NCBI GenBank assembly: GCA_003427395.1
Contig: BFEA01000016.1
Coordinates: 2,492,313-2,556,312 of the forward strand
Source of the DNA: Chara braunii
Lineage: Eukaryota; Plantae; Charophyceae
Direction of reading: 5' to 3'
DNA length: 64,000 bases
In this document: positions 5,783 through 30,434 of the stretch, piece after piece
Numbering within the stretch: the first letter of the stretch is position 1
Layout of the letters: every line of letters starts with the position of its first letter
Notes under the pieces: generated by a model
Seen by the model: the letters and a program-made list of their open reading frames with translations, nothing else
What the model was told of the DNA's origin: nothing
The model's database searches: none
Position numbers and translations under genes: made by a program

Positions 5783-5784
<2 letters not shown>

Positions 5785-5834: not shown

Positions 5835-5837
<3 letters not shown>

Positions 5838-8120: not shown

Positions 8121-8143
8121 TCTTTTGTGTCCCCCACTACTTC

Positions 8144-8290
8144 CTTTTTTTTTTATTTTTTTATTAAGGCCAGAATAGATCTATTAGGTAAGGTGTTAGG
8201 AGCATCCTCTCCTATTACACCTAGGATTGGCTGCTCCATCTATTAGTGGGGAGCTGCAGCTGCTGGAAACCAGGTCCAGCGTCCCTCATA
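8144..8290 (-). mobile_element. Second related LINE/SINE 3' tail
   Basis: Shares CCACTAATAGATGGAGC and GAGGATGCTC motifs and an AATAAA/A-tail with the tail at 6653-6800. Confidence 0.55.
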
Positions 8291-11100
8291 ATTACAGAAA
8301 TAAAACAGCATGAGTTCAAAAGTAGAAGCCTGCCTCTTCATCCCATTCTGAGCCGCCGGATCCAATATATCATACTAGCAGTTCTGACTTATGTACCAAG
8401 CATCAATCCAAAACAGAAAATTGGAAATTTGGAATTACAATCACCATGTAACGACTTTTGCAGGCTGGAAATTGTACATCGCTGGGAGAGGAATGCGCTG
8501 CTCGCGCCCGATCAACGCAGCAGGCTTGCGAGGTCAACGGCGAGACTGACTGCCATAGCCATTAGGCTGGTGGTTGGACCGACGTGTTGTAGGTGACGTC
8601 CCATGTCACATACACGTGGAGGAGCGTAGGGTAGGCGGCGGATGAAGGGAAAGGACACGTCAGACAAAATTCATTGTTCTTAGGTGTGCAACTCGCGCAG
8701 CCATAGCTACAAAGCGGATTGTCATTCTCTTTTGTGGAGGATAGTCATGCAAATCGCGCAACAATAGCTATTAGGCAGATTTCCAATGTGTATTGACAAT
8801 CTCTTCTGTGGAGGATAGTCATGCAACTCGTGCAATCATAGCTACAAGGCGTGTAGTAAACAACTGAAGTGACACGATTGTACGCTCATTTTTGTGGGAG
8901 TTTCTAGGGATATTCCAAACATCTAGCGCAGTCCACCGTGTCACAGTGGCTCACGTGGAAGAGCATATTTATTTCTATGTAGGATTATGGGATTCTCTAG
9001 AGATATTCCACAAATTTTGTTCTTATTGTCTTATCACACTGCTGTCTAGTAAGAGGAAGATTAGACGGCAGCGTGGCATTATGATACAGCAGGGAGGGAT
9101 GAGGTGAGGAGGGTTCGGAGGGAGAATAGGTTGAGTCAGAGGGAGAGACAATTGCATGCGGTGATAGGTGAAAGGAGGAGCAATCGTGGCGAACAACTGG
9201 AGAAGACCTACGAAGTTTTGTCAAAGGAGGTCAAACTGAGCTTTCACAGTGAAGTGCTTCCAGCTCTACCTTTCTCACCCTACCCATTTTCTTGTCACTT
9301 TCCCAATACTCTGCCTCCTCACCCCCACCAGCCTTGTCCAACAATTTTTATAACGAAGGTTTAAATTAATTTTGGATTTTTCTTTGTTGAACCGGGTAAT
9401 TTCAACACGAGAAATAATGACTAGGATACTACGTCATCAGCGTGTTCATAAGCAGGTGGAATCCATGCTGGTCTTTCGTGGAGCAATGCATCATTTAGCA
9501 ACAAAACAATTGCATACACCAGTGAAAGCGATGGAAAACCAGCTTTTGGAATCAACTTCTTATGTATTCTCAGATGATGAAGTTCTAACAGAGGAAGAGA
9601 AACAACAACAGAAATGTCGCTCTCTCACATTGACGGATCGGTGGGTAGCCTCGTCTGGGGGGAGAGGGGACAATCATAGTATTCGATGCTCTCCACTAAC
9701 CTCTCTCCTGGCCTCCAATGTGGGTCAAGGAAGTGTGGCAGGGTTGGGATTGGCTAGAAGGATGATGCTCAATTCTCTTTTCACGGAAGAAACGGCCAAG
9801 TTACATCTTCCTTACCTGGCGACAGGGGTTAATGGGGTAAGTGGGAGGGAGCTTTCACTGACTTCAGCCTGAGCAGGGGGACAAGAACTTCAGGCATTAC
9901 CACAATCAGAATTACAAGTCAGCAACGGAAATGTGCCTCATCAATCTGCAGACACAAATGTCAGTGTGATGAGCACTCTTGTCGAGGAACAGGGAGTTCA
10001 GAGTTTACAGTCTCAAGATGGTGCAAATGTCTCAGGTCAGTCACAGAGATAATTAAAGGAAAAATCACAGGTGGGAGGGGATGACGGGGAATTTTCTCCT
10101 CTACAGAGTACCGTAATAAGGGGTGGGANNNNNNNNNNNNNNNNNNNNNNNNNNNNNNNNNNNNNNNNNNNNNNNNNNNNNNNNNNNNNNNNNNNNNNNN
10201 NNNNNNNNNNNNNNNNNNNNNNNAGAGAGAGGAGATTGCAGAAAGGAGGGAGGAAGTCGTGGGCAGGGAAACAGAAAGGGAGACGGCTCAACCGTTGATA
10301 TCCACATGGCTACAAAAGGCCAAAGGTCCGTTCCAAGCAAGAGCACTTGAAGTTAAAAGATCTGGCCCTCAGGCTCAGCCCCTGCTCCTTCCTCTCGCTA
10401 ATATTCCGACTGCCCGTGCATTTTTCCTCTCTAAATTTATCAGTCCCTCAGAAAGCAAAGTTGATGATGATGGGGGGGAAAAATCAATCATCAAAACGTA
10501 CCCGACCCAGAAAGTTGCAGAGAGAGATTTTATTTATCAATCGCATGCAAACAACTGGGTCTTTCACGATGATGCGGCGTACAAATCCACGAATGAAAAA
10601 ATAAAATGGATTTGTAAACGCCTCACGTATTTGAAAGGCAGTCAAGAGGCAGTTAATGAAGATTTTCTAATTCAACCAATCTCTTCGACTACCTTCACGG
10701 TTCAAAGTGTACATATTATGGACAAAAAAATGATGGATGGAAAAAGTTGTGCTGTGATAGATCAGAGGTCCGTATATATCCATGGTCTCCCCAAAAACAG
10801 GGGCCTAACGAAAGACGTAGACAGATGATGAAAGAACATTATTGGGTAGAATTCCGCCACATCCCGATAGAAATTCAGGCAGCCTTTTATATGATTTTGG
10901 GGAGGTTCATGATATAGTTGATTTCATTGATCCGCTTCCAAAGTATGTAGCCAAAAGGGATGATTATCTGATGTTGGCTCTTAATCATCCTTCCAATGTG
11001 CCTTTCAACATAGATGATGTGATCCCTTACCTAATAGGGGGAAGAGAAGATCACATACACACATCCCACAAGTTGCGTCCCTGGTGCTTTCGCTGCAAAG

Positions 11101-12585
11101 CATAGTTGCGGCGCACCTCGGTGCGCGGATTTGCGCACGAATTGCGCACCACGCGCAGCGCACCAAAGCACAGCGCACTTGAAAAATTAGGTCCAAAAAA
11201 AAAAAAAAAAAAGTAAGGTTTCATAATTTCTTAGGGCCCCCAACTCGGCAAAAATGTTAAACTCACCACGCAAGCTCGCAAACCAGCCGCGCCCATGGCC
11301 CAAACTTTTCTTTTGGGTAAGGGCTGCCGAAATTTTAATTTCCGCAGGCCCTTCCCCCAAAAGTTTCAAAATAGCGAGGCACAAAATAGGGATCATTCCA
11401 ACTTTTGTTTTAGGCGGGGTATGAAAGTTGTCCTTCCCGCTGCCTTCTGCAAATCCCACACAGTAGTGGGGTAAGTTCGCAAGAAGGGGTAGTCGCCTAC
11501 TAACGACCTACCCCGCGAAATTTCGCAGAATTCACAAAATACATGTTCCATCGCCAACCGACCACCAATATATGCTGAAGATTGGCGTTCAGGTCCCCAT
11601 GTCGGCAGTTATGGGTCAGGATGAAGATGCCCGTGACTCTCTCGTTTTTTTGTTTTTGTTTTCTTACGAATACTTCAAGTGGGGATGCACAAAAGACATA
11701 GCATATGGCGGTGTATGGTTCCATGTTTTCGNNNNNNNNNNNNNNNNNNNNNNNNNNNNNNNNNNNNNNNNNNNNNNNNNNNNNNNNNNNNNNNNNNNNN
11801 NNNNNNNNNNNNNNNNNNNNNNNNNNNNNNNNNNNNNNNNNNNNNNNNNNNNNNNNNNNNNNNNNNNNNNNNNNNNNNNNNNNNNNNNNNNNNNNNNNNN
11901 NNNNNNNNNNNNNNNNNNNNNNNNNNNNNNNNNNNNNNNNNNNNNNNNNNNNNNNNNNNNNNNNNNNNNNNNNNNNNNNNNNNNNNNNNNNNNNNNNNNN
12001 NNNNNNNNNNNNNNNNNNNNNNNNNNNNNNNNNNNNNNNNNNNNNNNNNNNNNNNNNNNNNNNNNNNNNNNNNNNNNNNNNNNNNNNNNNNNNNNNNNNN
12101 NNNNNNNNNNNNNNNNNNNNNNNNNNNNNNNNNNNNNNNNNNNNNNNNNNNNNNNNNNNNNNNNNNNNNNNNNNNNNNNNNNNNNNNNNNNNNNNNNNNN
12201 NNNNNNNNNNNNNNNNNNNNNNNNNNNNNNNNNNNNNNNNNNNNNNNNNNNNNNNNNNNNNNNNNNNNNNNNNNNNNNNNNNNNNNNNNNNNNNNNNNNN
12301 NNNNNNNNNNNNNNNNNNNNNNNNNNNNNNNNNNNNNNNNNNNNNNNNNNNNNNNNNNNNNNNNNNNNNNNNNNNNNNNNNNNNNNNNNNNNNNNNNNNN
12401 NNNNNNNNNNNNNNNNNNNNNNNNNNNNNNNNNNNNNNNNNNNNNNNNNNNNNNNNNNNCAGGGCGCAACTCCCTCAGCGCGCGCACCTCACTAGGTACT
12501 GCGCACAGTGCGCACGCTGTCGTTCCAGCGCACAGCGCAGTGCACCGCCCCGCCCCGCACTGCGCACTGGTGCGCCGCAACTATG
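11101..12585. mobile_element. Non-autonomous hAT-type DNA transposon (interior partly N-gap)
   Basis: 17-bp TIRs CATAGTTGCGGCGCACC / GGTGCGCCGCAACTATG. Perfect 8-bp TSD CTGCAAAG (11093-11100, 12586-12593). Many subterminal GCGCA motifs. Confidence 0.9.
11732..12459. other. Assembly gap (others at ~10129-10223, 14054-14123, 28790-28933)
   Basis: N runs. Confidence 0.99.
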
Positions 12586-13145
12586 CTGCAAAGCCTATGG
12601 GCATCTCTTTCTAGATTCCTTCTGCGCACATAACCCCTCTCGCAAACAGAGAGCGACAGGGAGGTTGATCAGGGACCCGTTCAAGGCTAACCTGTGGAGA
12701 ACTATTGACACGGTGTGAAGAAACCCGGGGAGGGAACCGTCTGCCCGCCGCGAAAGCCAAGGACAGCGGCGTCTGTCACCCGCCGTGCCCACTTCGAAGG
12801 TCTTCGACGGCAGAACAGGGAGTGGGTGTTGAATCTCGCGTTCTCCCCCACTATGAAGTGGGGTTAAGTGCCCTTCCCACAACACAGCGAATTGAGAAAA
12901 ATAATTGCCAACATAAAACATTCAGTTTCATTCCACCGTTATCAGAACATAGAAACATGCTGGAATTTCTGCCTTAAATCAAATATATCGACTTTGCAGG
13001 CAGATTAGGAATCGAGGCTAGGAGCATCCCTTAACGCTTCACTTTCGTTTCTCTGTTATCCCCCTTAGTTTGATGTTGCTTGTGTTGTTGCCCTGTTCCT
13101 AAATTGTTTCTTTTCGGACAAGTATAAGGGAAATATAATAAATGC

Positions 13146-14808
13146 GTAAATGAAAATAATAAAATAAAATAATATCGAACCAGTCAATTGAGGTTGATAA
13201 AGTAAGGGAACTGTGTCAGCCGATGAATTTGAACTTTCACCGTTTGTCAAATCGCTAAACAGGGATCGACCTTAATCACGTCAGCAGGTCCGTCTCTTGA
13301 AAGTGTACTCAGATCCGCCAACTGTTCCAATGTCACGCTCTCGCAAAACCGTTCAGTGGGCTCGTCAATCGACAAACATGTCCTTCTCTGGTTCCATCTG
13401 CCCGATCAGGAGGCAAAGATCGATCCACCTGGGACTTGATTTCAAGCGCACCAACGAACCAATCCATAGACTCGATTTCAGACAGGGCTGGCGTGTCAAT
13501 GTACAAGCTTGATCCCAAGTAAGCCGGCGTGTTGATCCACATACTCTGTTCCTCCAGATAATCTAAGGAGAGTTAATAACCAGTCAGTCCGCTGACTCAA
13601 TTCCAAGCGGTCCAATCAAGAGTAGCAGCGTCGACCCAATGGTTGTGTTCTAGGTAATCAAGGGGGAGTGAATAGACAGTCTGTCCGTTGGCTCAGTTCC
13701 AAGCGGTCCAATCAAGAGTAAGCAGGGTCCAAGCGGCAGACTCAGTTTCAAATGTCCAATCAAGAGTAATCAGCGTCGATCCATTGGCTGTGTTCCAGGT
13801 AATCAACGAAAGTGAATAGACAGTCTGTTCGCTGGCTCAGTTCCTAGCGGTCCAATCAAGAGTAAGCAGCGGCCAAGCGGCGGACTCAGTTTCGAATGCC
13901 CAATTAAGAGTATTCAGCGTCAATCCATTGGTCGTGTTGCAGGTAATCAAGGGGGAGCGAATAGACAGTCTGTCCGCTGGCTCAGTTCCAAGCGGTCCAA
14001 TCAAGAGTAAGCAGGGTCCAAGCGGCAGACTCAGTTTCGAATGTCCAATCAAGNNNNNNNNNNNNNNNNNNNNNNNNNNNNNNNNNNNNNNNNNNNNNNN
14101 NNNNNNNNNNNNNNNNNNNNNNNTGGCTGTGTTCCAGGTAATCAAGGGGGAGTGAATAGACAGTCTGTCCGCTGGCTCAGTTCCAAGCGGTCCAATCAAG
14201 AGTAAGCAGGGTCCAAGCAGCAGACTCGGTTTCGAATGTCCAATCAAGAGTAATCGGCGTCAATCCATTGGCTGTGTTTCAGGTAATCAACGCGAATGAA
14301 TAGACAGTCTGTCCGCTGGCTCAGTTCCGTTAAAAATAAATAAATGAAACAGATACGACACACCGTCTCACTTTTCGCTGGGCCCTCTCACTCCAACACT
14401 CTCACTTTATTACTAGTCATCTTCTCTATCGCTCTCACACGCTTGTTCCCCTCTTCCTTTCACTCACACACTCACTCTCTCACTCACTCACTCTCTCCGT
14501 CCGCAGTCTCTCTCTCTCTCCCTGCACACTCTCTCTCTCTCACTGCGCACTCTCCCTCTCTCTCACTGTGCAGCCTCTCTCTCTCCCAGTGCGCAGTCTG
14601 TACACTCTCATCTCACGCTTCATGACGGCCAGGCTCACGCTCACCCCTTTGATTAGTAGGTGTGTGTCTTTCACCAGATGGAAAAGCAAAGATGAATCTT
14701 CAGTTGGAACATGAAAAGTCTCACCGTGAATCTCTGCGCCTTTAGAGGGTTGTGACAGCGTGTGCACTCACCAATCACGAGTGTGAATGGATCTCCTAAA
14801 AAAACTTG

Positions 14809-14862
<54 letters not shown>

Positions 14863-16149
14863 TATTGTGCCAGCGTGCCAGTTCTCTTTCCCTTGTAGTT
14901 GTCGTGCCAGCAGCGGCACCTTTCGATAGAGCACCGAGCCCAACGGACACGGTCGCTGCGTTCATTGTCGTTGCCTGCCCGTGCGTTGCGGTCCCTCTGG
15001 TCACCTCCGTCCCCGAATGTCCCTGAATCCTTCCTCTAGCCCAGCTATATTCCACTCTCACGGCCTCATCTGTCTCCTACTGTCCGCTGCCGCTGGTCCA
15101 GCCCTCCGGACTTATTAGCACCTTGGCTCAAAAAGTGCTAGGATCGCTAATACCAGTGGCCTCAAGCCCGCAACAACTGTTGGGCCTGCCTTGGAACCAA
15201 GGTTTTTTTTTTGGCTTGGTAATCCAGGAGAGATTGCCCTGCACCAGTACCCGTGTCATGTTCGTTGAGCCGCAATAATCCCTGGCGCAGAAGTTCAACC
15301 AACGACTGTTCCACCGTGGCCAGGCCGTCATGGAGTAACAAAATAAACATATTGAACCGGGGTGGGCCGCGGCAGCACCAGATCAGACCATCCACCGTAC
15401 CAAGCAGCGCGTGCATTGTACCAATTTCGTACCCGCGATCGTGAGAATCTGACCCGGCCGCCGAAATTCGAAAACCAGTCCCGACGACCCGACCGTTGAC
15501 GTAACCAAAGTCCGCGTCATGGTAGTGTTGGGACAAACACCGCTCGATAATCAAGTGTCCACCCGAGTTCCGTACGACAATCAGCACGCCATGGGAACTT
15601 AAAAAAACACGGGTGCCGCACAGTCAATAATTCCCGAGTTATAACAAGGATAAAATTCTAGTAAAACCCGGTAAAATTAGGGGAGGGTTAATAATTAAAT
15701 AAAATCCTCTTTAAATTGGCGCGGAGTAGTAATTAGGCAAATCATGGTTAAGATTGATGAGGGCGGAATCGGACAAAACTTGTTCAATAATAAAATAATC
15801 ACTTGTTTAAATTTCATCATTAAATTAGATAAAATTTTTGGTTTTTTTCTTTGTAAACTGGTCAGCATGAAAAGGACCACGCGAAGGCCTACTAGCTCAT
15901 TCACGTTCCGTGGCTGACCAATTCGAAGACAACCTCAGAACAGATGAAAAAAATAGGCGTCAGGCGCAGTAGACACGGCCGTCCAAGTCACGAAATTTAG
16001 GGGTTAGTACCAGCGGTCGACATAGAGGTTTTCAGAGTTAGTATTAGGACCCAAAATTTTTCCCGACAGCTCTGATGAAAGTGTCGTTCAATTCTTCCTT
16101 ACGCATTTAACCCAAGGCTCAATCCTTGGTTTTTCGGGTGGCCGACTGG
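13146..16149 (+). mobile_element. Dispersed repeat, probable non-autonomous Helitron, copy 1 (5' end unresolved)
   Basis: Collinear with 43970-46956. Similarity stops exactly at ...CCAAGGctcaatCCTTGG...CTGG|T in both copies. Confidence 0.6.
13590..14330. repeat. ~145-bp tandem repeat built from three ~48-bp subunits (contains N-gap)
   Basis: GCTCAGTTCC recurs at 13691, 13835 and 13980. The subunits share AATCAAG. Confidence 0.92.
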
Positions 16150-16163
16150 TTTGCGGCCACCTG

Positions 16164-16536
16164 GCAGACTAGGATTTTAATCACGCAGCGGGTGCTACTA
16201 ACACGTTCCCTTCATGCGACTTGAGCCTGCCCGTGTTATTCACAGTGGTCCCACTGCAGCGCGCCTTGTTAGTAGTGCGCTGCCGGCGAGCTCACACAGA
16301 ATGCTAGGCTAAATGTTCTGTCACCTCACGGATTAGGAGATCAAGGACTTATAAACTAATCGCTTTCGAGTGAAAGTTTTTCCCTGCCGAAGGGCTTGAT
16401 GAAGCCGCTTACCGCCGGTTCTAAAACCCTATATAGCAAGGTTTGGGTTACTTCTCGGCGAAGGTCTGTTCTGTCTCCCTCCCCATACATATGACTACAC
16501 AGATAAGGGCCCACACTTTAGCAAATCACGAACTCA
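16164..16536 (-). repeat. Inverted copy of the 3' internal segment (34973-35345) of the adjacent Gypsy element
   Basis: Reverse-complement match over ~373 bp with scattered substitutions. Confidence 0.93.
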
Positions 16537-17593
16537 GTTGCTGATAGTAAAAGGAAATATGACGAATTCGTATTTGGGATAGTTGGCAAAGTATCAAGGT
16601 TAGCTGAGTTAGCCTCGTGCCCTGTACTGGTAGACTGAGTCAGAGGCTGTCTGTGGTGGGAACTTTCGCCGTTCTGCTCCTATGCCCGGTGAAACAACTA
16701 TGACTTTTATTCATAAAGAAGAAAAGAAAAAAAAAACCTGCATGACTTTCTCTCTTGTAAGAATGACTAGAGACGGGGGCAACTGATGAGGTGGAAGAGA
16801 GAGAGGGAAGCACATGGTGGATAGTAAAGTTTTCTGCAAATGGTGAGTTCCCTGCACGAAAGAGAATGAACTAGTGAAGGGATAATGAGGTGGGTTATGC
16901 TGCATCACCTTGAAAGCAAAAGAAAGGAGGGAATACTCAGCACTCGTGCAAGATGAGACTCCTACAAAATACACCGAACATTACCCAAATCTAGTCAAGT
17001 GAGCAGTGTAACGTGATGCTGTTAAGTGGGCGGCGAATCAGTTAGTGTATAATCAGTTGTTTGATTAAGCATTCCGTCGGAACTCTCAAGTGCCAGGTTC
17101 TAAACTTCTAGTCAGTGAACAGCAATGACATCCAGCAGTTCGTTGTCCATTGTTTAGTAGCTCATCACCCTGCAGGTTTCAAGCAAAACAGTCGGCCCTC
17201 AGATCAGTGCTTAGATCAATATTCGAAACAATACTCTGGACCGTACTCAGAATGGTGCTCAGGCCAATGCTCAGCAATGTTCGGCCCTCAATCAACAATT
17301 AATCTTTCTTTCTTTTCTTTTATTGTATAATTTTTCATCAACCAGTCAACTATCAGACAGCGCTCCGGAAACGGGACTCAGGCAACTAGTCTTAGACAAT
17401 TCGACTCGGTTTCAGACAAATCAAGCTCAGACTGGACTTGAACAACCCTCCACAGACACAGGTGGAAGTCTGACGGGCTGACAAATGTCTCAGCGAGCTC
17501 AAGCTATCTCTCAATTTGAATGATGGCAGGCAAAACCAGTTACACTTGATTTTCAATTTCTGCATACTTAGGTTCAAACACGGCGACGAAAAC

Positions 17594-17839
17594 ATGAAAG
17601 GTAGTGAAGTGCTAACTGTTAAGTGCAGCTCTGTCAGAGATAAGGAGGAGGGATGGGAAAAAGAAGCATACAAAGACATGGAACTACATAGAAAAGTTCA
17701 ACTTGAGCATGCAATTCAGATGGTGAAAGGTGAAGTGTACATTGAGTACGTGATATATTTCTACGGACTCGACGGTGAAATACACAGTATCGGTTCTTCG
17801 CTAGAAAGGGTGGAACAGGCCAGAGCAAAATTCGCTTGA
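17594..17839 (+). CDS. LTR-encoded unknown protein, family X member 1 (81 aa)
   Basis: ATG-to-stop and open in both LTRs (36419..36664). Aligns with X2, X3 and X4. Confidence 0.7.
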   Translation: MKGSEVLTVKCSSVRDKEEGWEKEAYKDMELHRKVQLEHAIQMVKGEVYIEYVIYFYGLDGEIHSIGSSLERVEQARAKFA

Positions 17840-18591
17840 GCTAGTAGTATTCAAACAACCATTTCCAGAGCTCTACCAACATCTAAACAGAAGCTATTTG
17901 CAGTTTCTCCTGCGGTACGAAGACACGAGGATTCACGGTTCAATGTATCAGACTGTGTCCAGTGTATCCGACGACATTCAGTGGATATCAAGAGCGGTAT
18001 TCAGTACCCAGAACTGTACTCTGAACGGCATTCAGAGCAGTTCTCAGGACAGTACCTGGGACGGTACCCGAGACTGTACTCTGAACTGCACCTAGAACTG
18101 TACTCAGAGCAGTTCTCGGNANANTACTTGGAACAACACTCAAAACAAGTACTTTGAACGGTGCTCAAAGTAGCGTTTAATTTGTGGATTCAGTCACTGC
18201 TCAGTCTGGGTTTAATCAGCGAACAGCCAATTCTAACGATGTCAGTCATTCATTAGCAAGTAATCTGTTTCTGGAATAGTAAGCAGCCAGCCTCCGGAGC
18301 AATAAGCAATCAATTTTCAAGACAGCAACGTCAGTTTCCTGATCAGCCGCTACTAAACTTTCGGGTCAGCAATCACTCAGTCTCATAGTCTGCATAAGGA
18401 GACAGCAGTCAGCCATCAGTCCTTAGCAATCAGTCATTGACAATCGGTCATCAGCAATCAGTTAGTAACCGGTTAGCAACTATTCAGCGGCCAACCCAAC
18501 AATTTACCCAATAGCCCTTTCATGCTCAAATCACCCAAAAGTCACCCGTCTCGAGTCCAGTAAGCTGATGTAGGGAGAATTCGGTGAGGAT

Positions 18592-18903
18592 ATGGAGGGC
18601 AGCAACACAATTAGAGTCTCCTGCTCTCTGTATCAGGGCACTGCAGAGACATGGAGGGAGAGTGCAGTTGAGGAATACAATCAGCAGACTACTATGACGA
18701 TGGAACATGCACTGGCCCTCGTGAGGGATCATACTAGAATCGAGTACACATACTACTTGCACGATAAGAACGGCAAACTAAGGGATCATACTAGAATCGA
18801 GTACACATACTATTTGCACGATAAGAACGGCAAACTATGTGCTCCCATAACTTTTGTGGGTACTATTGAGGAAGCAAGGAGCACTGTTGGCAGCCACCAG
18901 TGA
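18592..18903 (+). CDS. LTR-encoded unknown protein, family X member 2
   Basis: ATG-to-stop and open in both LTRs. The 5' copy has an in-frame 57-bp duplication. Gapless alignment with X1 apart from that duplication. Confidence 0.7.
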   Translation: MEGSNTIRVSCSLYQGTAETWRESAVEEYNQQTTMTMEHALALVRDHTRIEYTYYLHDKNGKLRDHTRIEYTYYLHDKNGKLCAPITFVGTIEEARSTVGSHQ

Positions 18904-19028
18904 GCGTTCTGTCTTTGAACAAGAACAACTCGCCTATCCAGACGTTCAGTAATCAATTCAGCAACCAGTTTAGTATTCAGACCAGCGATCAGGTCACAGA
19001 AAGTCAGCAAACAGGAGACACCACACCC

Positions 19029-19610
19029 ATGAGTGCGGTCCAATCATTCCTGGTTAGCGAGGCAGTGCTGACCAATCTCAATCAGATTCCATGCAAAGAG
19101 GCATTCCGCTATCAGTATGCTAGCGTCATTGGTTTCAGACAAGGAGATCTGTCAATCTTCGTTGTCCTGACCAGTTTCGCTAATGGCACTATCTATGATC
19201 TGAGGCTGTATTCAAAGAAGGGCAAGGAGGCTCATGAGCATTTTGATCCGGTCTGGATCTCGACCAACAAATACCTCGAACGGAAGGAGAGGGAGCTCAA
19301 TGAGAGTGGTGCTACACTGATCCGCAGTTTTGCGCCGATGCTTTATACTGACTATCCTAGGCCTCCAGTCCCTTCTCTCCTCACAGATGGCACAACTTGG
19401 CTGGATCTGATTGGCTTGGCGAAGAGGTATATCTCTCCTGCAGTGATCGACGTTGAGGCATTGACCGAGCCCACCGAGTGTCCTTACCTCAGACGAGGGG
19501 TCTTTTCTGTGGACGGACTGCCTACTTTGTGGGAGGAGTTTTGCTCCATGGTCAACTTTCGTGTCATGTACCTCGGATGGTCATGCTCAGAGCTTGCAGG
19601 CTTCAAGTGA
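19029..19610 (+). CDS. LTR-encoded unknown protein, family Y member 1 (193 aa)
   Basis: Intact from ATG 19029 in the 5' LTR. Collinear with Y2 (F.YQY...VVLT.F..G.IYD.R.Y.KKG...PP.P...WL..I). Confidence 0.72.
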   Translation: MSAVQSFLVSEAVLTNLNQIPCKEAFRYQYASVIGFRQGDLSIFVVLTSFANGTIYDLRLYSKKGKEAHEHFDPVWISTNKYLERKERELNESGATLIRSFAPMLYTDYPRPPVPSLLTDGTTWLDLIGLAKRYISPAVIDVEALTEPTECPYLRRGVFSVDGLPTLWEEFCSMVNFRVMYLGWSCSELAGFK

Positions 19611-20166
19611 CTCTTTGTCACGAGGCCTCAATCTCAGATTGTACGTGGGCGTGGATCACGGCACCAGAGACGAACAGTGAAAAGAGAGACCGAGAGAGAC
19701 TGACCAGAGGGATGAGTGAGGACTCTTGAGAGGTGCTGACCATGCTTGTCTATGTGTACTTTCTGAGATTATTATGAGTTCTCATTCATCCTTCATACAT
19801 TTGATCTTGACTTTGCTCGGGTCAGTCTGTCTTGTCTCTTGTATTGTTCTTGTTTTGATGATTGCATTTGTGGACAATTCTGTCACAGTTTTCAAAATCA
19901 GATTGACATATTTGATGTATGCATAGCACCTCATAATTTTTATGTTTATTTATTTGCATGAAGTTCAACTGTTCTGAATCAAAATAAAAGATTCATAAGA
20001 CCGGGGTCCGGCGAAGGGTCTCGCTCGAAGCCGGACGCACACAACAGGAAGGGATTTGCATTATTTAATCTATTTATTTATTGCAATCAGATACAAAATT
20101 ATGCGTAACAACCTGTTGGTTTTCCGGTCGCCCGATGTGGCTCGACTGGAAAAAGTGCGACAAAAA

Positions 20167-20184
20167 TGGCGCCGTTGCCGGGGA
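20167..20184 (+). promoter_or_regulatory. Primer-binding site, tRNA-Asp type
   Basis: TGGCGCCGTTGCCGGGGA, 4 nt after the LTR-terminal CA. This is the PBS known from Athila-like plant Gypsy elements. Confidence 0.88.
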
Positions 20185-20499
20185 CATGAAAATATTTTCG
20201 TGTCCGGAACGAGCCTGGGTCATCATCATCTTTGAGTTTTGATTAGGGTGTGAGAATTGTTGACAACATTGTGAGCTTTCTATTGATCTTATTATTCTGA
20301 TTGAGTCTCGATTCTCCTGAAAGTCACGGCTGCTAACTGTGTCTTATTTCTTTCTTGTGTGAGGTACCACACTGGACTGGAGAAGGAGACTGATATATTG
20401 ACTGGAGAAGGTTTGAATTCAGGTATGCCTCATGAGCCTATGATGTCTTGTGAACACTTAGAATGGAAAGGAAGAATCGAGAGTACGGGGAATTTATTA

Positions 20500-20890
20500 A
20501 GAATGCTAACTTCTGATGCATTGAGAAAACTTTCGAAAGTAACTGCTTAAGGGATATTCCCTTATCAGTATGAGCATTGCTGGGTCTACCGTTCAGGCAA
20601 TTCGGCCATCAGCGTAGTGCTGACTCACTTCTTGGAGGGAGATATTTATGATATTCGTCCCTATGTCAAGAAGGGAGACTGTGATGACGGTGAGACCTTC
20701 AACTGGCTATGAGAAATTGCAATTCAGTCTCTATATGATGAGAAGACATAATTAATTAAACAGGATAAGAAAGTGGAATGGGGTTTAATGTCAGTGACAT
20801 ATGAGACTGTTCTAACTCCTCCCATACCTGACAGCTATTATGATGAGACTAACTGGCTGCCGATAATCAACATGGTATTGACAAAGGGAA
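20500..20890 (+). pseudogene. Family Y member 2 (three in-frame stops)
   Basis: Manual read-through gives GIFPYQYEHCWVYRSGNSAISVVLTHFLEGDIYDIRPYVKKG...TPPIPDSYYDETNWLPII. Confidence 0.8.
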
Positions 20891-20899
20891 AAAAAAACG

Positions 20900-21320
20900 G
20901 TGGTCATGAGAAGTAGAGAGATTTCAGCAGCAGAAATCAGACAGAGGAGGCTGAAATTCGGTAGAGGTTCAAGCCCAAGTCAGGAGGAAATTGAGCGTCT
21001 CCTAAAGTCACTGAACACTCTAAGTAAGAAAGGGGTGTTCTCATTTGAGGTTGTCAGATATGAGATGGTCGAGAGCGGACGGGAGCAGGAACGATTATAT
21101 GTACTGACATTCTGTTTCACAGATCTGGATGTGTATGATGTGAGAATCTATGCAGTATACGGGAAATGCTGGAGGTTTGCTGAAGAGGTAGTATTGAAAG
21201 AGAAAGAGAGGCTAAAGAAAGAGAACAAAAGTTTCACTGGTATGTCATGATAAAGTCCCTCCTTTATCTGATATTAATCTATCTAAAGACAACTGGTATG
21301 TCATGATAAAGTTTGCATGG
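20900..21320 (+). pseudogene. Family Y member 3 (frameshifted C-terminus)
   Basis: GVFSFEVVRYE...YVLTFCFTDLDVYDVRIY, then in a shifted frame PPLSDINLSKDNWYVMI. Confidence 0.7.
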
Positions 21321-21750
21321 AAAGTGAAGAGAGCTCAAGAAGAGTACTCTCAGTAGCCAGGGTGACTACTGTGAGGGGTAAACTCTATGAGGTGATAGGG
21401 TGTGATAATCCTTTTGTGATCCTGAGATATGAGACTTGTGAGAGGGGGACCATAATATTTCACATCCCAGTGGTCAAATTCCTGAGTACAGGCAGCGTGG
21501 ACGTAAGGATTTATGTACCGACAGTTCTAGAAAAGGAAGACGATTGTCTGAAGTATCAGACATGTGCTTATATTAATCTCATACGAATCAAGGAGTGACT
21601 TGAAAAGTTAAAGAGAAAGGTAACCTGGAGGAAAGAAGTAAGACAATTTGAGAGGCTTCCTGAATTCTCAATTACTAAGGGATTTGAAGGCAGGAGAGAC
21701 TGGATGCCTCTATTGGAGGCTATTGCTGAGATCGGTAGAGCAAGAGAAAA
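21317..21750 (+). pseudogene. Family Y member 4 (one in-frame TGA)
   Basis: FVILRYE...VVKFLSTGSVDVRIY. Read-through gives LEKLKRKVTW...DWMPLL, compared with Y2 LIKQDKKVEW...NWLPII. Confidence 0.65.
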
Positions 21751-21867
21751 AAACTCCACTGTGATGATAAAATCCCTACTTTTGAGTACCTTTGAACACA
21801 GATTCGAGATCCCTGATTATGTCCAACATGAGATCTACCTTTCAGATGTTGCTTATTATGATTAGCA

Positions 21868-22158
21868 ATGCCCAGTTTGACTGAACAGCTGACACTAAGA
21901 GTTGTGTTGGAAGGTAGAGTAGTGAACGTAGAGGGGACTCTTCGGATCTCTGACAGAAATCTTTCTACCCTGGATGAGTTTGGGTTTTTACAGCCTTTCT
22001 TAGATCGCATGAGAGATTCTGCTTTGAGAATTATCACGGACCAGACTGAGATAAGCTATCTGTTAAAGGTGGTGAAAGTGAGAAATACTGAGAGAGTATC
22101 ATATCACACTTTTCAGGAACGGGTCTTTCTTGCAAGAAGGATCAACAGTGGGCTGTAA
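21868..22158 (+). CDS. Unknown protein, family X member 3 (96 aa)
   Basis: Intact ATG-TAA; SALRIITDQTEISY...ERVFLARR. Confidence 0.7.
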   Translation: MPSLTEQLTLRVVLEGRVVNVEGTLRISDRNLSTLDEFGFLQPFLDRMRDSALRIITDQTEISYLLKVVKVRNTERVSYHTFQERVFLARRINSGL

Positions 22159-22161
22159 ACG

Positions 22162-22428
22162 ATGCAATTTGATTATGAGATTATAGACCTGACTCGATAT
22201 TTTATGATTCGGGGTACTATAAAGGGATATGATAGAAGACTGAGTAGGGATGATGAGAGAGAGTTGATTGAAAATTACATCGGAAGGCTGAGAAGGATTG
22301 CATTACCCTTGATCACTACCCAATCCATTATTGCTTATACCCTATATGTACAGAACTCTCAAGGGGTAGAGCAGACAAGAGAAGACAGAAACGAGCATGT
22401 ATCTCTTGCGAGAAGAGTGAGAGATTAA
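22162..22428 (+). CDS. Unknown protein, family X member 4 (88 aa)
   Basis: Intact ATG-TAA, 3 nt after X3; IALPLITTQSIIAY...EHVSLARR. Confidence 0.7.
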   Translation: MQFDYEIIDLTRYFMIRGTIKGYDRRLSRDDERELIENYIGRLRRIALPLITTQSIIAYTLYVQNSQGVEQTREDRNEHVSLARRVRD

Positions 22429-22487
22429 AGTGCAGAGAAGAAAAGGATAAGAGTGATAGAAAGAGAAGAGAATATCCGAGAAAGATC

Positions 22488-24100
22488 TATGGTCAAGATG
22501 GCAGGACGAGGAAGACCGAGTACATCAGAGGGGACCAATGAAGAGGCTTTGGTTGGAGTTATACGGGCATTGGTCGAGAGGGTTGAAAAGGGGGTCAGAC
22601 ATTGCAAGAGCAAAGAGGCAAGATGAAAGAATTCCCTGTTTCAGAGGACCCAAGGTTAATGACTTCTTGGACGAGTATGAACTATTTGGACTAAGTTATG
22701 GCTGGACAGACAAGCAACGACTTAAGCACCTCCTATCTTACTGTGATACTGACTCAAGACTGACAGTTCAAGAATTGATGGAAGGGGCTACTACCTGGGA
22801 AGAGATCAAAGAGAGACTGAAAAAAGAGTTCGAGAAAGATTCAGTTTCAACCACAACTAAGGATTTACTCAATATCAGAAGAGCTAAATATGACACTTTC
22901 AATGTTTTTCTTCAGACTTTCATCCGAACAGCAAGAAGAATTCCATATTTGGATGAAGCTCAGAGATGTCATATATTTTTGATAAATTTTACTGACACTG
23001 AAAGGCAGGCGGTTCTTAATCAAGCTTAGCACTATCCTCTTAGATGGGATGAAATGATTGCAATTATAAGAACTTTACCTACTGTCTCTTATAATAAATG
23101 GTCACTAGATCAGATCAGTACTTTGGCCAAGGATTGTGAAACTGAGAATGGAATAAATAGAGGAAGCAACCTGACTGCTGAGAACATTCTTCAAAAAGTG
23201 ATGGCAAACTTTATGCCTTCAAGGCCTGCAACGCATGCTGTGGATGACAGAGGGAAGAAAAAGGCGGAAAGTGAGGACGATGAAGACGATGATGATGACA
23301 ACGAAAATTATAGTAAGAAGGGGGATTTATCCAGACCCAAAAGGAATGGGAAGAATGGTGATAGAGGAAGTAGAGAGAAAAGAAAATATGATGAGCGTCC
23401 TAAGAGGAGTTTTACTTGCTACTATTGTGGCGAAGGGGGTCATACTACCACTTATTGCAAGTCTTTTAAGGAGGATGTAAGGAGTGGGGTGACAAAGAAA
23501 GATGCAATGGGCCATGTCTGTGATAGTTCATGGAATAAGTTGGATCCCAGACATCCGGGAGGTATGAGGCTTCTTGCTCTTAAACATGATGAAAAAATGA
23601 AGATTAAGAAGAAGAGAAAGACCAATATGAATGTTCATTTCCTCATTGGGGACTTGCCTAATGAGCTAGTACAAAGAGCAAGTGACTCTTATACCATGAT
23701 TGAGTTGTCTCTGCAGTCCTTAACACTGACAGAGTGTGAGCCTAGCGAGACATCTACAAGTGAGTCTCCATTGGGAGGGAATCCTACCTCTCAGAATCTA
23801 TCTGAATTAGTAGAGTCCTCTCCCAATGAAATGGCTCATCTCCTAGCTAACATGATGTCGTTCCATGGTGATCTACCCTCAGAACTTATCATGGAACCCA
23901 GTGTCAGGGTTGATGAAGTCAGGAACCACCAAACCCGTATGACACCTCAAATGATAGAAGAAAAAAAAAAAAAAAGGCTGATGAGTCACTTATTAACATC
24001 CTTGATGACCCTGAACAGGAACGCCCGCAAGAAAAGAATGAGCAGGGAAGAAAGAGAAAATTTATTCTCAAGAGTGATTTGGATGACGGGACTGTGATTT
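22488..24100 (+). pseudogene. gag: Gag of giant Gypsy element
   Basis: IPCFRG..VNDFLDEYE capsid-like start; knuckle CYYCGEGGHTTTYC; frameshift and stop present. Confidence 0.88.
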
Positions 24101-24302
24101 CTGATGTAATTACTAAAATGCTAGAAGAAACGGAAGTGACACTGTCTTTCAAGGAAGCCATGACGCTAACGCCCAAACTGAGAGAAGAGTTGAAAAAGTT
24201 AATTGAGAAGAAGAAATTGGAAGTTAACTATTTGGGGTCAGTCTTTCCCAACCAAGTGAATAGATCACTACCATGTTGTAAAATAAGATTTGCAACCATG
24301 GG

Positions 24303-24662
24303 TTGTGGGCACCTTACAATTCGTATAATCAAGTGAAGATTCTAGCCCTAGTAGATTCTGGGGCAGAGATGATACTTCTTTCACGAAGAACGATGGAAGC
24401 ATGTAATTTATCTATTGATAGACATGCACAAAATGTACTGAGTAATATTGCAGGAGAGTTGTTCGTGGCTGAATTTATTGATAATTTGTCTATCAGGGTT
24501 GGGACAATGTCTGAAGAGTTATTGGGTTTTGTAGTGCCGGATCTGAATCATGACTGTATTTTGAGAACTTCATTCTTGCATAGGATGGAGGCAGTCCAAT
24601 TTTTCAGTCATGAGGGGTCATCTTGGATCAGTCTACAGGATCCCGAGACTGCTCAAGAGTAG
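24303..24662 (+). pseudogene. pol: Aspartic protease domain
   Basis: ALVDSGAE catalytic motif. Confidence 0.88.
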
Positions 24663-25177
24663 ACCTTTATGGTCGGTTTGAAAAATGATTTCAAGCATCA
24701 ACTATCTGCTAATTGAATCAGGAGGGAGGAGTCTGCTGAAAGGATTATAAGACTAAAGGAGGAAGGAAAACGAGAAGCAAAAGAAGAGATTTCAGTGGGA
24801 ATCAATCAGGTTTCGAAAATGACAAAAGCCCTTGGTAAACTCGAGGATGAGGACGGGCAAATTGAAGCCTTCAAGAAAGTTGTAGAGACTGCTAAGGGAG
24901 GAAAGATGGAATTGAGATTTGCATCGACTCACCCTTTTTTAGGAAAATAGTCACTGGGTCAAAAAAAAAATACAAGCCCAAGGGGGTAAATAAAAACTCA
25001 GTGGCAGTCCTACTAGAGAAAGATTATGATGAAGCATTGAAAAAGGAGAGAAAAATTATAAGAGCATTGAGGAAATCAACAAAACTTGAGAATAGGGTCA
25101 CCAAAGAGAGGTTTGACACAATGAAGACAGACTCGGATCAGTTTATCCTGCCTAGAGAGAAATAATATATCTTCAGG

Positions 25178-26600
25178 ATGTGTCAGGAACTCTCTGGTGC
25201 TTTCTCCTTTAATGATGAAGAGAGAGGGCGATTGGACGTGGACATGATCAAGATGGCCAAGATTTGGACAGTTGATCATGTTCCATGGAATGATAGGCCA
25301 ACCAAGTATGCACTGAAGGAAGAGGCAGAAGTCGTAAAATATTATGACAAAAAGATTGCATCTAATGTTGCTGAACCTGTTGATGGACCGTATGTTAACC
25401 ACTGGTTTTGTTTTCGAAAACCAGGGGGCGGGCTAAGATGGATACAGAATCTTCAGAAGCTCAATTCTATGACGGTACGTGATGCAGGTAGTCTTCCTAA
25501 TGTTGACCTCCTCGCTGAATCATTTGCTGGTCGATGTATTTATTCTCTAGTTGACCTGTATTCTGGCTATGATCAGTTCTCTATTGATCTCACTAGCTGG
25601 CCAATGATTGTCATGCACACGCCAAGGGAACTTGTTCAGATGTGTATGGTACCTCAGGGCTGGACTAACGAAGTGGCAGTGGTTCAAAGGGATATGATCA
25701 AAGTCATGCAGGATATTTCTCTTGAGATAGTCAGTCCCTACATTGATAATAACCCTGTAAAAGTACCCCTGGTAAGAGATGAGACTTTGGTCGCAGGGGG
25801 AGTCAGAAAGTTTGTCTGGGAACATGCTGAAGGAGTAAAGATGGTCCTAGAGAGACTTCAGAAGTATAATTTGACTGTCAGTGGACCAAAGTCCCTTCTC
25901 TTCCAACCAGAAGTGATAATCTTGGGCTTCAGATGCTTCATCAAGGGTGGGAGTCCAGATCCCAAGAAGATAGACAAAATCTTGAACTGGCCTCTGCCTC
26001 TCAAACGAGTAACAGACGTCAGGAGTTTCTTGGGAGTCTGTGGATTCTGGAGGATTTTTATTCCTCATTTTGTTGCCCTTGCAAAGCCTCTGAGGGAAAT
26101 GGTAAGGCAAGGTTCTAACTTAGCATGGAATGATAAAAGACAAGCCGCAGCAGAAACATTGCAAGAAAAACTAAGAGATGGTGGAGTAGTGCTGAGAGTA
26201 CCATATTATGATGATGAGGAGACAAGACCTTTCATCATTGAGGCGGATGGAGGACCAGTTGTTGTGGGTGGAGTGCTTATTTAGAAGGATGAAAATGGGA
26301 GAGAAAGACCTATGAGATTTGAGAGCACAACCTTCAATTCTACAGAGAGAAGCTACACCCAATTCAGGAAAGGGTTACTGTCAATCATCCATAGCCTCGG
26401 GTGCTTCAGGCACTACGTTTTAGGAAGGAGATTCATCCTGAGGACTGATGCATCTGCTGTGATAGGTGCCATTAAAAAGCACCAACAAGTAGATCCAACA
26501 GTCAGCAGATGGATCGCCTTCATCTGGATATATAATTTTAAGCTGGAAAAGATCCCCACTGAGAAAAACAGAGCTGATGGCTTAAGCCGGATTGAGTGGC
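25178..26600 (+). pseudogene. pol: Reverse transcriptase and RNase H
   Basis: DLYSGYDQ, PQGWTN, degenerate YIDN(N), VRSFLG; RNase H motifs IEADG, FILRTD and NRADGLSR. Confidence 0.92.
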
Positions 26601-26839
26601 GAGAAGAAGAAGAAGAAGATGTGAATGAAACAATTGAAGAATCTGCCTATGTTGATAATTTCCTTAATGAAAAAGATGATGAGGATTATGAAGTGTCATG
26701 CTCCTACAAGTGGAGTCTGTGGCTAGAAGAGAGAGACAGCTGAGGAGAAATTCCGAGCGCATACGTTTATGAGTCGATTCCAGGAAAAGAAGAAGAATAT
26801 GAACCAAACGACTGGTATGCTAAAGTCAATGCAGCAGCA

Positions 26840-28230
26840 GTGGCTGCTCATGAAATTTGGGAAAGTTCAGGTTCAAAGGAAGAAGAAGAGAGTCAAAAGA
26901 AGGAAGAAGATATATTTTTCTTCTATGAAGAATATGATGAAAATTATCAAGAGATTGGCAAGAAGATGGAAAAAGAGCAGCTAAAAAAATATTATTGTAA
27001 AAATTCAAGAAAAAAATTCAGACTAAAAAGAGGACATATCTTTGTGGATGGTAAGGGAGGCCTACCTCCACTAAGAGTGGTCTGTGGTAAAGAGAGACAG
27101 TTAGAGATAATTGTTGCCCTACACGAGGGGGTTGTTGGTGGTCATAGGGCTGCTGAGGCAACTTACTCCAAGACTGTCAAACTCTACTTTTGGCCTGGCA
27201 TAAGAGACATGATTTTCAGATATTGTAAATCATGTGTCTTATGTCAGAAGAGGTCTACCACAAGGATGATTGAGCCTCTATTCCCTACAATCCTGGTAGA
27301 GCCAGGTAGCAGAGTACATCTGGATCTCATCATTATGCCTCCAGACAAAGGTGGGATCAGATACATACTAAACATGAGAGATAATTTATCTTGATAAGTT
27401 GAGGCAAAAACTCTGAAAAGGAAACGGCCGAGCAAGTGGCTGATTGGATAGAGGAAGTCTACCTCAGGTATCCTTTTATCAGAGAATTTGTCTCAGACAG
27501 AGGATCAAAGTTTCGAAACGAGGTTGTCAGAAGAGTTACATTCAGATTGGGTGTCAGGATTCGTTATGTGACTACTTACCATCCTCAAGCGAATGCGCCT
27601 GTTGAAAGAGGTCACAGAACCCTGAAGGATTCATTGGCTAAGTGGTGTGAAGAGGATCTCAGCAATTGGACAAAGGCATTAAGAGTTGTTGTATATGCTG
27701 ACAACATTACAGTCAAGAGAACTACTGGATATGCGTCATTTACTCTGTGGTATGGCCGATATACTACATTGCCAATTGAAAGTATTGTTAAGACATAGTC
27801 AAGTCAAGAAAGTGACAAAGAATATTCTATTTCAGAGTTTCTTCAGATCCGGGTGAAGCAAATATCAGAAGTTGATCAGGCAGTGATGAATGCTGCAGAA
27901 AGAATGACATCCAGCAGGCTATCAGATCAAGAAAAATTGAACAAAAAAAAATATATAAGAAAAGAGAAATTGAAGATTGGATAAGTTGTCCTTCTATTTC
28001 ACAATTCCCTTAAGACGCAATGGACTAAAAGATTGGAGCCCAGATGGCTTGGTCCCTACAAAATCACAGGGGAAGCAGAGGGCAAAGTTTATGAGATTTC
28101 AGAGATTGATGGATCCAGAGTTTACGACATGGTGTCAGGATCAACACTTCGTAAGTTTATTTTCAGAGATCCTGACTTGATCCCTACAGTGACTTCAAAG
28201 AGAGGAAAGAGAAGTCAGTCACCCAAGTAA
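26840..28230 (+). pseudogene. pol: Integrase (HHCC, DDE core, GPY/F)
   Basis: LHEG...GH...CKSCVLCQ; VHLDL; SDRGSKF; YHPQANAPVER; PRWLGPYKI. Confidence 0.92.
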
Positions 28231-30434
28231 GAAAACAGTCATAGAGGACTAAGAGAAAGAGTACAGTGAGATGCTGAGACGGCAAGACTCGGTTTCAGTG
28301 GAATCAGATCATTCATGCATAGTCAATTCAGCATTTCGGATTCAGCATTTCAGATTCAACATTTCAATTTCAGAGCTTCGATTTCGTCATTTCAGTTTCG
28401 GTTATTGAATTCCAGTTTTCAGTTTCAACATCTCGGCTTTAATATCTCAGTTTTCAGCAAGCCTTTTTATTCAGTATTTCAGCAAAACGACTAAATCAGG
28501 TCTTTTGATGCAGTGCTACAGTCGTTCCAAAAGTGTCAAGTCCCTGAGAGTGGGGAGATAACTGTAAAATCAGTTTCTTAAGTATTGACAGAGTGTCAAA
28601 GATTTGAGAAGCTCATGGCTGTGGCACATCAAAAGATATGATCAGTATTATCCTAAGATAAAGAGAAGAGCATGGTGGGCATGAGGAAGTTCAGTTCTGT
28701 CTGACTAAGAGTTATCAGCAGAAGGACTTCGAGTCTCTGAGTAAAATGTCCATCAAAGAGATTCAGATGAAAGCAGGTATAAAGAAGTTNNNNNNNNNNN
28801 NNNNNNNNNNNNNNNNNNNNNNNNNNNNNNNNNNNNNNNNNNNNNNNNNNNNNNNNNNNNNNNNNNNNNNNNNNNNNNNNNNNNNNNNNNNNNNNNNNNN
28901 NNNNNNNNNNNNNNNNNNNNNNNNNNNNNNNNNNGAAAAAAAAAAAAAAAAAAAAAAAGGGACCTCTCTGGGGCCAGCACTACGCATCCTTCTTGAGACT
29001 GAAGGGAGGTCTCTTGTAAGTGCTTGCTGCTGGTTATCATGTTGCTGTTCAAGTGTCTCTTGAGACTGACGGGACATCTCTTGAGAAATGTTTTTCCTGT
29101 TATGCGGGTATGGGCAGTCTGCTTGTGGGGAATTGTATGCTTGTCCGACTGCCTGTGCTTGGTATTATCTTCACTAACCTCAGATGTTGTTGATTGTCGG
29201 GGCCGGCCAGAGCTTTACCGCAGTAGGTTGCAATCTGGTGGGGTCAGCAGGTCCCCGACGCGAGTGTTGAATTCCGTAGTTTGACTGAGGCTAAGGCTCC
29301 GGGGGCCTGGCCCGTGAGGTTGGAAGGGGTCAGCTGGAACCCTACCGCAGTAAGAGGATGCAATCCAGTAAGGTTAGCCAGAGCCTTGAGTTGTAGTTAG
29401 ACCGGGTCCTACACTCGAAAATCTAGGCGGGGCAGCCAACGCCCTTGGCCAAAAACTGGTAGGTGAGCCGGTCCCTGACCGCAGTGGTCAAATCCGGGTT
29501 CGGGACAGTTTGGCTGACGGGACGTCTGCTGTCATAGGGTGGCCAGACCCATTATAGTCTGGGCGTCCTGGTGAGAGTGCCAAAGGGTTGTCATACTCGA
29601 GTAGTGGGTATGCTGGTCCTGACCTGGAGGTAGGTCAAAAGGGCTGTCAAGACAAATGGTCTGACTAGTCTTGACCTGAGGCGGGCCGAATGAGATATGT
29701 GAGACTGACGAGACGTCTGACGTTCCTGACCAGTGGTGGGTCGAAACCAAAATAATCAATAAATCCTGGGTATGAAGGGTTGTTATGTATAAATTATTTA
29801 TTATTATTTATTATTTTATTTATGGGTTTTATTTTGTTTACTTGTTACCTGGCTGATAACTGTTGTGGAGTCTGCTTGCTGGGGCATAGTTTGGTGTTTG
29901 TGAGACTTGCTGTTTTGGAGGTATACAAAGCCTCATTTGAAGTTCCCCAGACGAGAGAAAATGAAAAAGGGTTTGATATCCCTTTCCTATGTCTGAGAAG
30001 TTAAGGAGATGCCTCACTTAGACCAGAGAAAGAAGACGGGGTTTGGTATCCCCTGAGTCACTTGAGGAGTTGAGAAGATAACTCTCTCAGGCCAGAGAAC
30101 AGAAAAGAGGGTTTGGTATGCCCTATCCCCAGCATGGCGGACTGAACAAGTGTCCCAAGTGTTGATACCAGACTGACAATGTGTTCGATTTTCATCCAGG
30201 ATGATAGTTAGGGTAACTTTTCTCTGATATGAAGTTCAGACAGAGAACAAACCCCAGAAAGGCAAGAGATCGGAGCCAACAAGAAACATAATCCTTCTTA
30301 AATTTATTTGGTGGTCGACAAGCGGCCTGGTTCACGAGGAACCTGCATCCCCGGCCTTAAGGAAGCCAAACTCTCAGACCTTGGACGCTATGAGCTAGAC
30401 TGTGAACTGAAAATTTTATGGGCAATAATCAGAC

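Follow-up and report, generated by a model that had tools for sequence, protein, structure and literature searches.

A 64,000-nucleotide (nt) stretch of the Chara braunii genome (contig BFEA01000016.1, positions 2,492,313 to 2,556,312; hereafter the window, in which all coordinates below are counted) contains a decayed Ty3/gypsy long terminal repeat (LTR) retrotransposon of ~22.7 kb that is home to all four members of a group of short open reading frames (ORFs) designated X1 to X4. We argue that these ORFs are very probably real coding genes and that all four probably belong to one family. Together with members of a second family, designated Y, they make up an accessory set of eight small genes, three of which lie in the LTR and five of which are packed ahead of gag. 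The best overall explanation, to which we give about an even chance, is that the X ORFs are real accessory genes of a single family whose products are small soluble binding proteins that regulate the element or shield it from silencing.

The case for the X ORFs as genes is made by the deep divergence of paralogues whose frames have stayed open, and not by survival in the present copy. X1 and X2' (the copy of X2 in the 3' LTR) share 26% amino-acid identity over 77 gap-free codons, with identities of 0.47, 0.55, and 0.22 at codon positions 1, 2, and 3, and the corresponding values for X3 and X4 are 0.43, 0.53, and 0.37 (block 1, 60 codons). When neutral divergence was simulated to equal nucleotide identity, both frames were open in 4 of 1000 trials for X1/X2' and in 1 of 1000 for X3/X4. 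Alignments further confirmed the positions, motifs, and spacing given in the original prediction: the distance from a shared A to an I-x-Y motif is 10 residues in X1 to X4 alike, and 23, 23, 24, and 23 residues, respectively, separate the Y from a terminal AR. Saturated third positions in sequences that keep their frame, start, and motif spacing thus point to real genes, and long selection on the X proteins would have operated during the replicative history of the family, with old duplications the likely source of the four genes. Additionally, a HMMER search with an X profile against 1.84 billion representative proteins returned three matches (P0117, P0118, and P0119), two of which, P0118 and P0119, are C. 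braunii gene models with N-termini related to X, in other Chara elements; P0117 was dropped as a repeat-driven false match. The proposal that the X ORFs are mere regulatory upstream ORFs or chance frames devoid of protein function draws on their shortness, on recognition values in the Atlas that are low (1790 and 1553), and on the lack of any named family, but it is largely refuted by the codon-position pattern and the simulation, runs counter to the confident folds predicted from very shallow alignments and to the conserved relatives in other elements, and is in our judgment very improbable.

The openness of the frames in this particular copy is another matter. As originally claimed, all six X ORFs (X1 to X4, X1', and X2') lack stops, while gag-pol carries 10 in-frame stops and ~5 frame breaks in 1898 codons. 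The probability that all six frames would be free of new stops is ~0.25 as estimated from a divergence of 2.5% per LTR, 0.05-0.09 when calibrated on the stop rate of gag-pol and Y in the same copy (831 Y codons contain 5 stops plus 2 frame breaks), and 0.014-0.04 when frameshifts are also counted, so that survival exceeds the neutral expectation only marginally. The LTR copies themselves have diverged neutrally: between them, X1 and X2 show 18 non-synonymous and 7 synonymous differences (pN 0.050, pS 0.053; pN/pS ~0.9), and X1 and X2 have drifted since insertion in an element copy that is dead. The open set was, moreover, picked post hoc for its openness, and 40-49% of windows the size of an X ORF are free of breaks even in the broken gag-pol. 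We therefore read openness as weak evidence and as mostly a matter of luck and short length; the original prediction itself noted that short ORFs survive more easily by chance, and an inference from present openness to a retained function is not supported. The same considerations bear on the suggestion that the host has retained, or domesticated, the X genes of the present insertion and that they are open for this reason. The count of breaks lends it some color (none among 533 X codons, 22 among the 2729 codons of gag-pol and Y; Fisher p 0.019, or p 0.092 for stops only), but the 18 non-synonymous changes at a pN/pS of ~0.9, the 57-nt duplication acquired by X2, the post hoc choice of the open set, and the origin of most RNA reads in other copies make domestication highly unlikely.

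Four X paralogues in two closer pairs, X1/X2 and X3/X4, had been proposed, and the pairs are firmly supported by shuffling tests, which gave z 15.6-16.9 for X1-X2 (0 of 1000 shuffles in each of four comparisons) and z 13.3 for X3-X4 (0 of 1000). The direct link between pairs did not emerge from the same test, and these sequences alone do not establish four-way homology. The connection is made instead by P0119, whose residues 1-83 score z 20 against X1, z 17 against X2', and z 7.8 against X4 (0 of 3000 shuffles), when none of five control ORF pieces exceeded z 1.0, and by profile-profile comparison of X1/X2 with X3/X4, in which the E value moved from 0.019 to 5.7e-4 once the two homologues, P0118 and P0119, were added. 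AlphaFold models of X1 (E6-14, H21-43, E49-57, E63-72, H73-80, where E is strand and H helix; predicted local distance difference test score, pLDDT, 82.2) and X4 (E2-10, E13-21, H29-50, E55-64, E70-80, H82-87; pLDDT 81.7, from an alignment of X3 and X4 only) present the same order of elements around an unbroken 22-residue helix, with one additional N-terminal strand in X4. The shared fold is thus predicted to be alpha/beta, with a three- or four-stranded sheet and the 22-residue helix, and a difference in fold between the pairs, which the original prediction had named as a refuting result, did not appear.

Several observations weigh against a single family. Cross-pair shuffling reached only z 0.4-4.0 over eight comparisons (5 to 323 of 1000 shuffles), P0119 scored only z 2.4 against X3, and the cross-pair probability from hhalign was 2%, rising to 30% with the homologues. 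P0119 was retrieved by a profile that contained X3 and X4, making the bridge partly selected and not fully independent, and the alignment behind the X1 model likewise included X3 and X4. On the side of a shared fold, a comparison with 48,161 chains found 17 of the 50 top fold matches to be common to the X1 and X4 models, mostly over the same chain ranges with an offset for the extra strand of X4, an overlap that stands without a control on unrelated small alpha/beta proteins. These results could be accommodated if X1/X2 and X3/X4 were two unrelated families of real genes that had converged on a common small alpha/beta fold; the weak cross-pair z values and hhalign probabilities speak for such convergence, as does the commonness of the fold, which 646 and 907 of the 48,161 chains match at Z>=2. 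Such an origin would leave to coincidence the gap-free register of the A, I-x-Y, and AR positions, the z 7.8 of the P0119 bridge, the equal element order and helix length of the models, and the occurrence of both pairs in the same element beside a second family split likewise between LTR and leader, and we consider it unlikely. A single X family is preferred because the P0119 bridge and the shared predicted fold reinforce the weak direct link.

Searches for known families gave little. Pfam returned nothing above noise for the six X ORFs, PHROGs a single X match at E 0.093, and a sequence search of the PDB one chance X match at E 0.017; the Atlas held no usable match to X1 or X4, a result from which neither novelty nor absence follows. 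None of 298 candidates of 44-181 amino acids (aa) from a word-index search qualified as X homologues, a search at longer lengths recovered only P0118 and P0119, both already in the query, among 7993 scored proteins, and a metagenome scan with X4 found nothing. A further candidate, L001, was dropped as an 18-residue chance match. By structure, the X models lacked a Foldseek match at E<=0.001, and the best fold matches reached a Z of only 5.7-5.8, short of the value of 8 at which a match is flagged as more than a common arrangement. The top matches are spread over parts of PD-(D/E)XK nucleases, KH-like domains, transporter C-terminal domains, and others, and the modeled fold would be a common scaffold that bears no conserved catalytic or KH motif.

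Type II KH domains carry a GxxG loop between two helices. That loop is absent from the X1 and X4 models, in each of which one helix runs unbroken for 22 residues, and G-x-x-G occurs only in X1, X1', and P0119, where it is located in a strand-strand turn; by this feature X is not a member of the class. The X4 model aligns with 9jkp_B residues 212-300 (Z 5.7, root-mean-square deviation [rmsd] 2.8, 75 residues aligned) and with 3gku_A (Z 5.0, rmsd 2.7, 63 aligned), in ranges that we take to be KH domains, and both matches are tied with unrelated chains. A second structural proposal takes X to be what remains of, or one half of, a PD-(D/E)XK nuclease fold that Y might complete in trans, and stems from weak but recurring fold matches to Rai1/DXO, Exo5, AddAB, Cas4-like, UL24, and cap-snatching endonucleases, the best of them partial (Z 5.7, rmsd 3.3, 65 aligned). 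Unrelated folds score equally high, no match passes the Foldseek threshold given above, and the seven-row X family alignment has just two invariant residues, M1 and Y52, with no acidic residue or lysine, and hence no catalytic one, conserved; by this feature X is not a member of the group, and the remnant proposal is quite improbable. The X proteins also have no membrane segment (top 19-residue Kyte-Doolittle mean 0.63-1.22 in six of six ORFs) and their models are globular. They are soluble, so neither env-like nor sORF2-like, and candidate identities as sORF2/FAST-like or env-like membrane proteins were set aside for want of a transmembrane helix.

The coordinates of the X ORFs and of the other features of the element are collected in Table 1. 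Pfam matches to gag, protease (PR), reverse transcriptase (RT), and RNase H (RH), along with integrase (INT), occur in Ty3 order at 22460-28227, and the element is a member of Ty3/gypsy. Its best RT match is a C. braunii protein, P0001 (75% identity; of 116 matches, the first 63 are all from C. braunii), and a metagenome scan with RT returned five loci at 26-30% identity, too distant for use. The LTRs are 95.2% identical (168 differences over 3527 aligned sites). A 376-nt segment is inverted between the ends of the element, its counterpart at 34970-35345 lying shortly before the 3' LTR with 95% complementarity; the LTR start has thus undergone a rearrangement at one end of the element, and the full LTR could be longer than 4 kb. 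Inspection of the flanks by eye disclosed no clear target-site duplication, the LTR start being rearranged. Purine tracts are numerous, and none could be singled out as the polypurine tract. The primer-binding site (PBS), TGGCGCCGTTGCCGGGGA, is presumably of the tRNA-Asp type, like that of Athila elements.

Table 1. Features of the Chara braunii Ty3/gypsy element, in window coordinates
Feature	Coordinates	Strand	Description
X1	17594-17839	+	81 aa; within 5' LTR; isoelectric point (pI) 5.6; predicted strand-helix-strand-strand-helix
X2	18592-18903	+	103 aa, lengthened in frame by a 57-nt tandem duplication; 3' LTR copy 84 aa
X3	21868-22158	+	96 aa; pI 9.5; ATG 2 nt past Y4 stop
X4	22162-22428	+	88 aa; pI 8.1; predicted strand-strand-helix-strand-strand-helix
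X1'	36419-36664	+	3' LTR copy of X1
X2'	37404-37658	+	3' LTR copy of X2; 84 aa
Y1	19029-19610	+	193 aa; open in 5' LTR
Y1'	37772-38351	+	broken copy of Y1 in 3' LTR
Y2	from 20425	+	decayed; leader
Y3	20906-21250	+	decayed; leader; ends short
Y4	21317-21865	+	decayed; leader
376-nt piece	16164-16539	-	inverted relative to 34970-35345
5' LTR	16538-20159	+	aligned part 3.6 kb; carries X1, X2, Y1
12-nt tandem array	18011-18105	+	degenerate, 7.9 copies; between X1 and X2
14-nt tandem array	18411-18462		3.7 copies; downstream of 12-nt array
Primer-binding site	20167-20184	+	TGGCGCCGTTGCCGGGGA; after 5' LTR; read from sequence
gag-PR-RT-RH-INT	22489-28230	+	broken
3' LTR	35373-38916	+	carries X1', X2', broken Y1'

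The gene order is LTR[X1, X2, Y1] - PBS - Y2 - Y3 - Y4 - X3 - X4 - gag, with stop-to-start gaps of 2 nt from Y4 to X3, 3 nt from X3 to X4, and 60 nt from the X4 stop to the gag ATG. Family Y is a second four-member paralogue family of ~160-190 aa with four invariant columns, F...D-x-R-x-Y; its pairwise shuffling z values range from 0.8 to 18.6, five of six pairs reaching at least 3.8, and the N-terminus of a C. braunii gene model, P0066, is a Y relative. Family Y has no Pfam and no PDB match, and a PC4-like strand pattern that we thought to recognize in it found no support in either search. A 21-nt exact direct repeat (21236-21312) flanks the Y3-Y4 boundary at the short end of Y3, suggesting that this boundary is locally rearranged. 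Elsewhere in the element, between pol and the 3' LTR, an open minus-strand ORF of 157 aa (30435-30908) with an N-terminal Arg/Gly-rich basic stretch and an acidic run is similar in position to the extra ORFs that Grande and Retand carry in antisense; a Pfam search with it gave no match. On each strand of the region 31900-34500 the reading frames are broken up, a 119-aa ORF at 32566-32925 among them, which suggests that the long 3' region holds one more decayed gene or a nested element. The 5' flank at 13139-16150 copies another repeat (43963-46957) with a 145-nt tandem array, the match ending at ~16150, where the element starts.

From one DNA run, 27,851 contigs align to 18130-28300, most at 90-95% identity, and the element therefore belongs to a large and very abundant repeat family. 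Contig depth over the bins of X3 and X4 (7893 and 6251) falls within the gag-pol range of 2408-13990, so that these two genes are a regular part of the family. In one run 1550 of 16.7 million RNA reads matched the family, and two further runs gave 34 and 27; most are 90-95% alike or less, and thus stem mostly from other copies. The first run held ~25-45x more family reads per read examined than the other two runs of the same study, an excess that may reflect either tissue-specific derepression or carry-over of DNA.

How the X proteins might act can be outlined in conditional terms. They would be small soluble adaptors that bind nucleic acid of the element or host proteins, and would regulate the element or blunt host silencing. 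X3 and X4 would be translated along with Y2-Y4 from a long leader of the genomic RNA through termination-reinitiation or leaky scanning, and X1, X2, and Y1 would come from transcripts that start within the LTR or in the 3' region. The aromatic-rich strand (I-x-Y-x-x-Y) and terminal Ala-Arg could supply a surface that contacts nucleic acid or some protein of the host, and by diverging the paralogues could cover a wider range of targets, as happens when host and parasite are in an arms race. A role as regulatory or anti-silencing adaptors is favored because the genes have been retained and repeatedly duplicated with fast divergence, because they carry no signature of an enzyme or membrane protein, and because precedents exist in fast-evolving, contact-rich accessory proteins of transposable elements, in VANC, and in a nuclear sORF1 encoded ahead of gag; we infer it with somewhat less than even confidence. 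More speculative is a broader scenario, which we advance only tentatively, whereby this algal Ty3/gypsy lineage grew a virus-like accessory kit by internal duplication, with eight genes of two unnamed families, three in the LTR and five polycistronic before gag, and whereby X proteins serve as diversified counter-silencing or RNA-handling factors, and so are to a retrotransposon what VANC is to its transposons or accessory genes are to retroviruses.

Several findings weigh against the adaptor reading. X1 and X2 are acidic (pI 5.6-6.1), ill suited to binding of nucleic acid, and X3 and X4 are basic. Between the PBS/LTR end and the start of gag lie 58 ATGs, by which the route of ribosomes to gag is left unexplained. 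Within the range covered by contig depth, which starts 3' of X1, depth drops to 32 at 18130-18469, the spacer before X2, vs ~1800-17000 elsewhere; this spacer is either fast-evolving or confined to a subfamily, and the LTR portion that carries X1 may occur in one subfamily alone. In all three runs the RNA reads showed flat depth and balanced mates with no start, end, or clear splice signal; they are indistinguishable from carried-over DNA and give no sign of X gene expression as such. A different function has also been weighed, in which the X proteins belong to particles or to transport, as small structural subunits that assemble together with Gag or that help particles or RNA to move within or between cells, X3 and X4 being made in fixed ratio to Gag. 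The placement of X3 and X4 directly before gag, across the short gaps given above, speaks for this proposal, and small ORFs before gag in fly elements mediate cell-to-cell transfer (10.1101/2025.03.14.642691). Set against this are the lack of a membrane segment, fold searches with no outstanding match to a capsid-like or movement protein, and the location of X1 and X2 in the LTR, away from gag; we regard a particle or transport role as rather unlikely, and retain regulatory or anti-silencing adaptors as the preferred function.

Comparison with known systems places the Chara element among retrotransposons with accessory ORFs, which are themselves already known. Plant LTR elements are well known to carry extra ORFs, obscure in origin and for the most part in function too, and most common between pol and the 3' LTR (PMC7264820); accessory proteins of transposable elements show faster evolution and a larger number of predicted contacts with the host (PMC13547354). 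Ogre elements have LTRs of 1.9-6.5 kb and one or two extra ORFs (PMC6431247), and Retrosat2 has one ORF0 (PMC3485330). As in Ogre, Retrosat2 with its ORF0, Athila, Grande with its gene23, and Retand, the LTRs of the Chara element exceed 3 kb and lineage-specific extra ORFs lie outside gag-pol, in some cases upstream of gag; whereas these plant Ty3/gypsy elements have one or two extra ORFs, the Chara element has eight small genes and two multiplied families. The MDG1 group of Drosophila likewise presents two short ORFs (~70-110 aa), sORF1 and sORF2, directly before gag on unspliced RNA, and such a small ORF ahead of gag (sORF1) can yield a nuclear protein; sORF2 is a membrane protein and sORF1 a predicted helix-turn-helix protein (10.1101/2025.03.14.642691), whereas X comprises four paralogues that are soluble and predicted to be alpha/beta. 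VANC proteins of VANDAL DNA transposons are fast-diverging accessory proteins associated with short tandem arrays in non-coding DNA of the element (PMC5735166). The 12- and 14-nt LTR arrays are a likeness to VANDAL, and a link between X and the arrays is unsupported. VANC carries DUF1985/DUF287 and derives from DNA transposons (PMC5735166), and X has neither domain; by this feature, with no Pfam match to either at E<=1 among the six X ORFs, X is not a VANC protein. CERV of the Caenorhabditis elegans element Cer1 is likewise a novel protein beyond gag-pol and a model for a role in RNA handling, but it is one protein made from a spliced mRNA (PMC10309623), and the X searches show no homology to it.

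In the literature searched, chiefly as listings and the opening lines of abstracts, we found no account of accessory ORFs in Chara Ty3 elements, although the supplements to the Chara genome paper may describe the family. What is unusual here is the number of genes, the internal expansion of two families by paralogy, the genes inside the LTR, and the leader of five cistrons. Among plant LTR retrotransposons extra ORFs are frequent, nearly all of them with no known function, and the elements described carry one or two of them. Small, soluble, and well-folding paralogues in an abundant repeat of a close relative of land plants would offer a tractable test of retrotransposon-encoded counter-defenses, and two expanded small-protein families, genes within the LTR, and a five-cistron leader would widen the coding and translational range known among retrotransposons.

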